From positions 3,681 through 67,680 of the forward strand of contig JBBSWF010000136.1 of the NCBI GenBank assembly GCA_038046365.1: DNA of 64,000 bases, read 5' to 3'. The stretch's first letter is position 1; each line of letters begins with the position of its first letter. This DNA is from Nanobdellota archaeon. Its GTDB lineage: Archaea; Nanobdellota; Nanobdellia; Woesearchaeales; JAGWAF01. The notes under the pieces were generated by a model. The model was not told the DNA's origin. It made no database searches and was given only the letters and a program-made list of their open reading frames with translations. The position numbers and the translations under genes were made by a program. Shown piece after piece: positions 17,557-54,068 of the stretch.

Positions 17557-17743
17557 CTAAAAGCGGTACGTAATAAGTCGACCTAGATTTTTGGGGGCAG
17601 CACCTTCTCGCGTGGTGGTCTCGATCATCGTCTCATCGGTCGCCGCTCGACGAGGGGCTCCCTATTGCGACCAAAGAAATGTCACGCTCGACTGAGGGTG
17701 CTGCCCCCGCAACATGAGTCGACTTATTACGTACTAAAAGCGG
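17557..17743. mobile_element. MITE-like hairpin element E1: 10-bp direct repeats, 16-bp perfect terminal inverted repeats, and an inner 12-bp stem around a roughly 92-nt core
   Basis: CTAAAAGCGG occurs at 17557-17566 and again at 17734-17743. TACGTAATAAGTCGAC (17567-17582) is the perfect inverse of GTCGACTTATTACGTA (17718-17733). The inner stem pairs GGGGGCAGCACC (17593-17604) with GGTGCTGCCCCC (17697-17708). Confidence 0.6.
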
Positions 17744-17778
17744 AAACGATTTTATACTAGATGAAGAATTGATCAGGT

Positions 17779-53609: not shown

Positions 53610-53642
53610 AACAGACGGAACCGGGGAATAGGGTAATTAAAC

Positions 53643-53791
53643 GTTTCGCTGACTAGAACGTGTTAAGCGCCTTCTCGCGTGTGAACCCCAAAACTTCTCT
53701 CGTCGGCTGATTTTCGACGAAAATCAGCCCATCACAAACAAAACGATTCAACGCTCGACCGGAGGGCGCTTAACACGTCCTCTGACGAAAC
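53643..53791. repeat. Hairpin element E2, second member of the E1 family
   Basis: The outer pair is GTTTCG/CGAAAC. A 14-bp perfect stem pairs ACGTGTTAAGCGCC (53658-53671) with GGCGCTTAACACGT (53765-53778). The core shares CCTTCTCGCGTG and ACGCTCGAC..GAGGG with E1. There is an internal perfect palindrome GGCTGATTTTCG-A-CGAAAATCAGCC (53705-53729). Confidence 0.55.
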
Positions 53792-53825
53792 CTTAAAAAG
53801 GCGACCCGATTCTGTCGAATATATT

Positions 53826-53899
53826 GCTCCCGTGGTCTAGCTTGGATATGACATAGCCCTGCGGAGGCTATAACCCGAGTTCGAATCTCGGCGGGAGCG
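53826..53899 (+). tRNA. tRNA-Arg-GCG: tRNA-Arg (anticodon GCG), 74 nt, no encoded CCA
   Basis: Hand fold. The acceptor pairs GCTCCCG with CGGGAGC, followed by G. The D arm has A14, G18, G19 and A21. The anticodon stem is TAGCC/GGCTA with loop CTGCGGA. The T arm is CCGAG-TTCGAAT-CTCGG. Confidence 0.9.
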
Positions 53900-53902
53900 T
53901 TG
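53883..53902 (+). repeat. 20-bp direct repeat, copy 1 (the 3' end of tRNA-Arg)
   Basis: GAATCTCGGCGGGAGCGTTG. Confidence 0.85.
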
Positions 53903-53997: not shown

Positions 53998-54017
53998 GAA
54001 TCTCGGCGGGAGCGTTG
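53998..54017 (+). repeat. 20-bp direct repeat, copy 2 (orphan duplicate of the tRNA-Arg 3' end)
   Basis: GAATCTCGGCGGGAGCGTTG, identical to 53883-53902 and 95 nt downstream of it. Confidence 0.85.
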
Positions 54018-54068
54018 TATATCTTCTAAGGGGGTTCACGACGAACCCCGAGGAGAAAAATAGAGGGA

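Follow-up and report, generated by a model that had tools for sequence, protein, structure and literature searches.

Element E2, upstream of a tRNA-Arg gene in a Woesearchaeota-type archaeon, is probably a miniature transposon of a superfamily with a conserved palindromic interior

The window examined in this work is the whole of a 64,000-nucleotide stretch (C136:3681-67680; names of this form denote contigs) of a Woesearchaeota-type DPANN metagenome-assembled genome (MAG), which comprises 2.02 Mb in 184 contigs with a G+C content of 49.6% and is the sole member of its genus in the genome collection used. An earlier note, made from the sequence alone, had described in this window two related elements, E1 and E2, in which a conserved core is enclosed by different but complementary stems, and it had interpreted this pattern as the compensatory covariation of a structured RNA. 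Our analyses indicate, with a probability that we place at about 0.8, that E2 is a non-autonomous DNA transposon, viz. a MITE (miniature inverted-repeat transposable element), of a Woesearchaeota-wide superfamily whose members have in common a palindromic interior of about 100 nt. The variable stems of these elements are, or directly abut, transposon ends. Terminal inverted repeats (TIRs), together with target-site duplications (TSDs) of 8 or 9 bp, enclose nearly all of the copies, from which their assignment to the MITEs follows.

All of the sequence motifs that the earlier note had listed were confirmed at the positions given. The 5' core 12-mer CCTTCTCGCGTG is present as an exact match at 17603-17614 in E1 and at 53670-53681 in E2, and the 3' core ACGCTCGAC-N1-2-GAGGG is found at 17684-17698 and 53751-53766, respectively. 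When up to one mismatch was permitted, the 12-mer was matched twice in the window versus 0.45 times expected, and the 3' core pattern was also matched twice versus an expectation of 0.00 from 100 dinucleotide-preserving shuffles. The related centre strings CTCATCGGTCGCCGCTCGACGA and CTCGTCGGCTGATTTTCGACGA are likewise present as they had been quoted, and the stems of E1 (GGGGGCAGCACC at 17593-17604 with GGTGCTGCCCCC at 17697-17708) and E2 (ACGTGTTAAGCGCC with GGCGCTTAACACGT) are both perfect. Contrary to the earlier note, these stems do not differ throughout: their inner 6 bp belong to the conserved core and show a single compensatory change (AGCGCC/GGCGCT in E2 versus AGCACC/GGTGCT in E1). 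Both strands of E1 and E2 fold far more stably than shuffled sequences, with fold energies of -51.1 kcal/mol (z = -6.6) for E2 and -59.5 kcal/mol (z = -4.6) for E1.

Rather than constituting a family of two members, as had been supposed, E1 and E2 are two of at least 16 E-type copies of a hairpin module of about 125 nt, which were identified in this MAG together with one diverged copy on C86 by means of pattern, nhmmer and covariance-model searches. A sister module, M2 (AGCGCCTTC-GAAAyC ... GrTTTC-GACCTTAGGGCGCT), which has the same outer core as the E module and a different inner helix, is present in about 12 copies. The copies are intergenic and non-coding; the longest open frame across E2 is 51 aa, and the frames that overlap other copies are those of genes starting just outside the element. 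When the subfamilies were aligned together with their flanks, sharp boundaries, TIRs and 8-bp TSDs became apparent. By this alignment, E1 is a complete MITE of 169 bp (17566-17734, forward strand) that has TIRs of class T2 (GTACGTAATAAGTCGAC; T2 ends GTACGTAATAAGTCG), contains the module at 17593-17708 and is flanked by a perfect 8-bp direct repeat, TAAAAGCG, at 17558-17565 and 17735-17742. A copy on C147 is 98% identical to E1, with different flanks and its own TSD (CCCTCACC). The copies on C6, C15, and C77 are delimited by the TIR GTAGGTAATAAGTCGCC and the TSDs TATTCATT, ACGCATC(G/A), and CAAAAATG, that on C55 has the TIR GTATTTGTATAGCTC and the TSD GCCATCTC, and elements of the M2 type are bordered by CTCTTTTC, AAAAAAAG, ATTTTAGA, and AGGGATTA. 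The members of the pairs E1/C147, C6/C15, and C17b/C176 are 96–98% identical in unrelated flanks, and perfect 8-bp TSDs of copies that are identical or related to this degree, again with unrelated flanks, comprise TAAAAGCG, CCCTCACC, TATTCATT, CAAAAATG, GCCATCTC, CTCTTTTC, and ATTTTAGA.

E2 (53656-53780, 125 bp, forward strand), which is matched by the covariance model R1 at 53654-53782 with 111.4 bits, looks like an old, structurally intact and unique copy. Its left inverted repeat, or basal stem, GAACGTGTTAAGCG (53656-53669) pairs with the right inverted repeat CGCTTAACACGTCC (53767-53780), as seen in both sequence and fold; these 14-nt arms are matched at 13 of 14 positions, the inner 12 of which are perfect (ACGTGTTAAGCG). 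The 3' core ACGCTCGACCGGAGGG (53751-53766) holds the conserved bulge, and the predicted apical hairpin GGCTGATTTTC-GAC-GAAAATCAGCC (53705-53729) consists of an 11-bp stem, including a C-G closing pair, with a GAC triloop. The closest siblings of E2 are the C6 and C15 copies, with 75% identity, and its arms, G[A/G]ACGTGTTAAGCG, resemble those of the copies C85 (GCGTATCAAGCG; CCTGCGTATCAAGCG) and C17a (GCGTGTCAAGCG, GTGCG[G/T][T/G][C/T]CAAGCG); the TIR group formed by these three copies is referred to as T3. The left flank of E2, GCTGACTA (53648-53655), and its right flank, TCTGACGA (53781-53788), agree at 6 of 8 positions and are a probable decayed 8-bp TSD, the chance of a match at 6 or more of 8 positions being about 0.004 for each alignment tried; an alternative reading is a 5-bp TSD, CTGAC.

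TIRs combined with TSDs of 8–9 bp are observed for E1, its siblings and about 35 relatives. In an automatic search for ends over 130 module matches from many genomes, 35 copies with clean TIRs and TSDs were obtained, and the TIRs of most of these matched at 12 of 12 positions. The module was found inside at least 10 different TIRs, which fall into two classes. Those of the GGC class (GGCTCTGTCCTnAAT, GGCTTCATCCAAAAA, GGCTTTGCACAAAAAGT, GGCCCCGTTGAAAT, GGCGTTATTGAAAAC, and GGCTCTGTAGAAAAC) bound elements of about 165 bp with TSDs mostly of 9 bp, and the clearest members of the GTA class (GTATTTGT[A/T]TAGC, GTAGGTAATAAGT, and GTAATACTTTAGC) have 8-bp TSDs. Some elements carry the same TIR without the module (C20:83656-83830 and the 163-bp GGCTCTGTCCC MITEs of genome G338), and in the group D elements (about 300 bp) one pair of TIRs encloses two modules with separate stems, an inverted M2 and an E. 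The existence of these module-less and two-module elements indicates that the hairpin module is cargo, joined in the course of time to many different ends. The G338 MITEs amount to about 22 copies of 163 bp (loci L046-L053) with the TIR GGCTCTG[T/C]CCC(R)AATCTCGG, TSDs of 7–9 bp and an unrelated long-hairpin interior, and the TIR variant GGCTCTGTCCTnAAT, which is related to theirs, carries the E module in genomes G004, G260, and G308.

A direct connection between stem and transposon end is seen in group C (C17:30561-30686 and C176:8366-8491), where the stem that closes the core, GTATTTGTAT-AGCG, is the TIR GTATTTGTATAGC. This 13-mer occurs about 45 times in the genome. Thirteen contigs break off about 50 nt from a copy of it, and in these places the 13-mer is followed by one of two different interiors (TCTTTAGCATAGG... 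or TGATTTTGGCATTTTC...). Such a pattern is the signature of a longer multi-copy element whose two ends have broken the assembly, so that a long repeat does exist. The earlier note had stated that its RNA interpretation would be refuted if the shared core proved to be part of an insertion sequence (IS) end, and this is essentially what group C reveals, in that the stem adjoining the core is the TIR of a multi-copy element, the shared core itself lying outside the ends of that element. The contigs concerned are C1, C24, C33, C35, C50, C57, C61, C63, C116, C129, C132, C142, and C179; past GTATTTGTATAGC, seven of these ends continue as ...TCTTTAGCATAGGTTTGTGGTGAGC and six as ...TGATTTTGGCATTTTCTGATC, and they are probably the two ends of an IS present in at least six copies, the interior of which is missing from the bin. 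The group C copy on C17 is directly abutted (C17:30688-31050) by a deletion derivative of this element of about 360 bp, with a degenerate left end GTATTTCATAGCC and the right end ...CAGCAATAC, which accounts for the absence of a visible TSD at this copy.

The distribution of the module extends well beyond this genome. A scan with R1, which was built from ten copies, recovered the module in at least 17 of 401 genomes of the same order, representing 12 genera. A looser pattern scan of all species genomes returned many records of Candidatus Woesearchaeota or Nanoarchaeia from groundwater and sediment among chance bacterial matches, and a strict pattern requiring the exact core gave only chance bacterial matches over the same genomes. 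Two matches in viral contigs, as well as those in bacteria, were rejected as chance occurrences in GC-rich coding DNA. Old diverged copies, such as the eight in genome G139, still retain the core. In an automated census of archaeal MITEs, a Woesearchaea genome was among the most MITE-dense, with 105 elements per Mb (PMC11602168); no published description of this MITE family or of its core was found in that census or elsewhere in the literature.

The module consists of a basal inverted repeat ending in (T)TAGCRSC, an asymmetric core, two variable spacers of about 22 nt and an apical C-GAC-G mini-hairpin. Essentially invariant, across carriers and across the order, are the 5' CTTC(TC), a T·G opposition and the 3' (TC)GACCTGAGG, the last of which forms a bulge of 3–5 nt. 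All 47 copies that were aligned, from about 14 genomes, have an unchanged CTTC-TCGC, and GCTCGAC-CTKAGG is conserved order-wide, whereas the spacers cannot be aligned and the stems differ where the core stays constant. Neutral descent is unable to give such heterogeneity of rate between the core on the one hand and the spacers and stems on the other. As the TIR systems that carry the module can do without it, its role would be one exerted in cis and subject to selection in master copies. The apical tip reads C-GAC-G, C-GAA-G, or C-GUAA-G on one strand, and in a census of 96 copies the loops GAC (16), GTA (9), and GAA (7) were all closed by a C-G pair.

In most genomes, the apical domain has the form CCCC-loop-GGGG-CnnA-CCCCC, which permits two alternative hairpins. 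At loci L034-L045 and L054-L057 (genomes G004, G260, G308, G338, and G374), it appears as a pyrimidine tract, a loop, a purine tract, a second loop and a second pyrimidine tract, e.g., UUCCCC-GAC-GGGG-CCUA-CCCCCUU or UUCUCC-GAC-GGAG-CCAA-CCCUCUU, in which all three tracts change together. This pattern fits either two alternative hairpins or a mirror-repeat (triplex-like) arrangement. Where a triple helix might be read from CCCC-GAC-GGGG-CnnA-CCCCC, two alternative Watson-Crick hairpins explain the pattern equally well, and E2 lacks it. In this genome, additional hairpin-rich sequence of about 50 nt has been inserted precisely into the apical hairpin of the E-module copies at C20:5725-5941 and C83:15356-15700; these insertions form no clear repeat family. 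The copy on C77 has lost about 41 nt including this hairpin. The hairpin tip thus appears to be a hotspot for indels.

Several observations weigh against the interpretation of E2 as a MITE. The core is far more conserved than the TIRs, and this across two TSD classes, whereas ordinary MITE evolution predicts otherwise; this conservation leaves room for a function at the level of RNA or single-stranded DNA (ssDNA), and the restriction of the GAC-, GAA- and GUAA-type apical loops to one strand hints at a strand-specific single-stranded fold. The TSD of E2 itself is the imperfect one described above (6/8), and no near-identical sibling or empty site showing that E2 has moved was found. Further, no transposase with ends matching those of the MITEs was recovered, and an end-A pattern search for an autonomous IS yielded nothing in 60 relatives or in metagenome contigs. 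The GTATTTGTATAGC-ended element has an interior that the MAG lacks and that a search of metagenome contigs did not supply either. The only IS256-family gene found (PF00872, E = 8.5e-78) is located on the 1,383-bp contig C56 with the inverted ends GATAGTGTAACA and GGCAGTGTCAAG, and IS6-like genes (PF13610) are present at C14:1-1300, where the TIR is GGCAGACACTGTC, and at C74:10582-10953; none of these genes has T1, T2, or T3 ends. For the GGC class only, an IS256/Mutator-like enzyme would be a reasonable guess, because the TIRs of this class resemble these transposase-gene ends and its TSDs are of 9 bp.

An alternative that is possible but unlikely is that the module is an autonomous functional unit that at least two unrelated Woesearchaeota transposon systems have captured repeatedly. 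In this scenario, it would serve as a protein-binding or catalytic RNA or as an ssDNA recognition element, with the bulged core and the GAC/GNRA-type apical loop as its active parts, and the MITEs would be spreading a structured nucleic acid to DPANN promoters.

The covariation that suggested a structured RNA is clearly present. By RNAalifold, 20 of 34 pairs showed double-sided changes. In 47 copies, roughly 95% of the basal stem was paired, as many as four kinds of pair occurring at a single position, and the inner helix occurs in the alternative forms GCGTG/CACGC, GCTT/AAGC, GCCT/AGGC, and GAAAC/GTTTC. The two arms of any one copy pair at 9.5 of 10 positions versus 6.4 of 10 for arms taken from different copies. 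However, covariation alone is not decisive, because inverted-repeat DNA yields the same signal. An RNA helix under selection normally contains many G·U pairs and few A·C oppositions. Among 960 basal-stem pairs (96 distinct copies, 65 distinct arms), 917 (95.5%) were Watson-Crick pairs, 10 were G·T and 12 A·C, even though the filter employed counted G·T as paired and thus favored it; the covariance-model alignment also showed no asymmetry between G·U and A·C save for one fixed U·G. As G·T is no more common than A·C in the basal stems, their symmetry points to inverted-repeat DNA and away from RNA pairing. The earlier note was right that the core stays constant while the stems vary on both of their sides, but its preference for a structured RNA over a transposon is not supported, given the TIRs, the TSDs and the lack of a G·U excess.

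In the rival reading that follows the proposal of the earlier note, the module would be a structured non-coding RNA with a function, its transcription would start at a promoter of its own or at a neighboring one, and it would only hitch-hike on several kinds of MITEs. The invariance of the core, with compensatory changes in three helices over an order-level range, speaks for it, as do the conserved bulge, a conserved U·G wobble (38 of 47 copies; the neighboring U-A pair in 44 of 47), the one-strand apical loops closed by C-G, the association of a single module with at least 10 types of TIR and with both TSD classes, and the persistence of the core in old copies such as those of G139. We nevertheless consider it improbable, in view of the equality of G·T and A·C (10 versus 12 of 960) and the following observations. 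Searches of Rfam 15 with E1 and E2 (gathering score, and E-values up to 10) and with 12 relatives (E-values up to 0.5) revealed no family match but only chance microRNA-like ones, and no convincing internal promoter was seen. E1 and E2 lie upstream of both of two divergent TATA boxes and read-through transcription is therefore unlikely; the copies face the promoter next to them in either orientation (18 versus 8; 3 versus 2 for T2 copies), and they spread with TSDs, as DNA does.

The earlier note was correct in placing both elements just upstream of a promoter, and this position reflects the choice of target sites by the transposon. Of 30 elements whose ends could be defined, about 26 have a TATA box that starts 14–17 nt (modal value 15) from one end, a distance which for the GGC class corresponds to the 9-nt TSD plus 6 nt, the place of the B recognition element (BRE). 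The promoter is faced by the right end in 18 elements and by the left end in 8. In this genome, a TATA-like octamer is situated 10–15 nt from an end in nine of ten T2/T3 elements versus 4% per random flank, and by the same octamer test the T1 family in this genome showed no such spacing pattern. For E1, the spacing is 15 nt, with the TATA box TTTTATAC at 17750-17757. The TATA box TTAAAAAG (53793-53800, forward strand) beside E2, which lies 25 nt upstream of the start of a tRNA-Arg (GCG) gene (53825-53900, forward strand; ARAGORN; Rfam RF00005, 58.2 bits), is 12 nt past the inferred end of E2 and 14 nt past its perfect stem, and it fits the family spacing. On its other side, E2 is bordered by a TATA-like box (53635-53642) of a minus-strand DUF4013 gene, and E1 also sits between divergent promoters. 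The promoter adjacency of E1 and E2 thus belongs to the way in which the transposition system works. The literature yielded no paper on archaeal MITEs that are targeted to promoters.

The location of these elements could also be viewed in terms of a benefit to the host, or of harmlessness, if the module were a cargo acting as a two-way transcription stop or insulator upstream of promoters, such that insertions are retained. The elements do lie 14–15 nt upstream of TATA boxes in compact genomes, usually just past the upstream gene, and oligo-T is an archaeal termination signal; in the GGC class a T-run, which is that of the TIR, comes after the strong hairpin whichever strand is read (e.g., ...CTTTTTGTGCAAAGCC). 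However, such a T-run is absent behind the hairpins of E1, E2, and other copies of the GTA class, the divergent genes on either side of E1 and of E2 leave nothing to terminate, and a terminator role would leave the invariant asymmetric bulge unaccounted for, all of which renders this explanation quite improbable. It is highly improbable that the hairpin is an ssDNA recombination site comparable to those of integron attC, IS200/IS605 or REP/RAYT systems, whose shape and extra-helical bases are read by a tyrosine or HUH enzyme, for although the conserved structure and bulge, the variable sequence and central part and the strand-specific loops resemble such sites, these systems do not make outer TIRs with 8–9-bp TSDs, the copies are scattered singly at promoters and not in cassette arrays, and the GTT...AAC arm order is the reverse of R''/R' in attC.

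Some known motifs were also considered by eye and rejected. The CUGA of a C/D box is not conserved, the 5' strand lacks the GA of a K-turn, the two 3-nt bulges 4 bp apart of a bulge-helix-bulge are not present, and the CUGAUGA of a hammerhead is confined to one subfamily. Spacers resembling bridge RNAs or guides were rejected as well, inasmuch as no complementarity to their own TIRs was seen by eye in group C and identical copies have different targets.

Returning to the MITE interpretation, these elements would be moved in trans by DDE transposases that make staggered cuts of 8 or 9 bp and that may read the archaeal core promoter. The variable stems would then be transposase-specific ends kept symmetric at the DNA level, and such symmetry could be maintained in two ways: through the need for one protein to bind at either end, and through template switching within quasi-palindromes, by which a change in one arm would be copied into the other. 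Template-switch correction of quasi-palindromes is a known mutational mechanism. The asymmetric core may be a cis-acting feature selected in master copies, most likely as a bulged hairpin or cruciform that would juxtapose the two ends of an element of 125–170 bp, otherwise too stiff to synapse or circularize, and/or as a site to which a factor of the host or of the transposase binds. As an old, intact single copy, E2 would have landed 12–14 nt upstream of the TATA box of the tRNA-Arg gene.

Other features in the neighborhood of E2 may be mentioned. The last 20 nt of the tRNA-Arg gene, GAATCTCGGCGGGAGCGTTG (53883-53902), are repeated 97 nt downstream at 54000-54019, and between the two repeats are found the string GCTCGCACTTCGTGCTTCG and a small hairpin, CAGAAGG-ACTGAGGG-CCTTCTG; GCTCGCACTTCGTGCTTCG recurs on C154 beside a tRNA-like 3' half. 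Judged by its appearance, this is either what an integrated element has left behind, of the att type, or a repeat associated with tRNA genes. The window also contains, at 28783-51894, an uninterrupted open reading frame of 7,703 codons for a giant protein.

The results presented here have several implications. For annotation, intergenic covarying stems around a core in DPANN genomes need to be checked for TIRs, TSDs and the ratio of G·U to A·C before they are labeled as RNA genes. That two transposition systems share a MITE superfamily in which conservation is higher in the interior than at the ends suggests that cis-acting structure matters for the success of MITEs. The fixed spacing of 14–15 nt to the TATA box points to an archaeal counterpart of promoter-targeting transposition, and it may provide a handle on a transposase that reads TBP/TFB-bound DNA. 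Lastly, a considerable part of the little intergenic DNA that very small DPANN genomes possess consists of these elements, which lie there beside promoters including those of tRNA genes.

Prokaryotic MITEs include SM1-SM4 of Sulfolobus and the Correia elements of Neisseria. Like these, the woesearchaeal elements are short, non-coding and multi-copy, they possess TIRs and TSDs, are intergenic, can fold into long hairpins and would be mobilized in trans; unlike them, they have an interior core that is more conserved than their termini and is common to unrelated TIRs and two TSD lengths. Modular repeats that fold into hairpins are also known from bacteria, viz. ERIC, BOX and REPIN/BIME. On bacterial repeats of this kind, see also PMC3184786 and PMC2817692. 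The woesearchaeal elements are similarly mosaics of reusable palindromic modules in which structure is kept better than sequence, but in contrast to REP/REPIN, which lack TSDs and depend upon RAYT, they have classical TIRs and TSDs. With integron attC sites, they share an imperfectly palindromic sequence, extra-helical bases that are conserved and a central region that varies; they differ from these in having TSDs, the opposite arm order and no cassette arrays, and no linkage to an integrase was seen, although no integrase search was run. Promoter-targeting transposition is known for TnGBS in bacteria and Ty3 in yeast. The Mutator-like elements TnGBS, ISLre2, and ISKra4, which offer the nearest parallel known for the target choice seen here, insert 15–17 bp upstream of the -35 box of sigma-A promoters (PMC3942029). 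In comparison to these elements, the woesearchaeal ones are MITEs without a linked transposase and their target is the archaeal TATA/BRE promoter instead of a bacterial sigma-A promoter; like them, however, they are inserted upstream of the core promoter at a distance that is short and constant, with TSDs of 8–9 bp that are typical of IS256/Mutator-like enzymes and with a partial orientation bias (18 versus 8) linked to their asymmetric ends.

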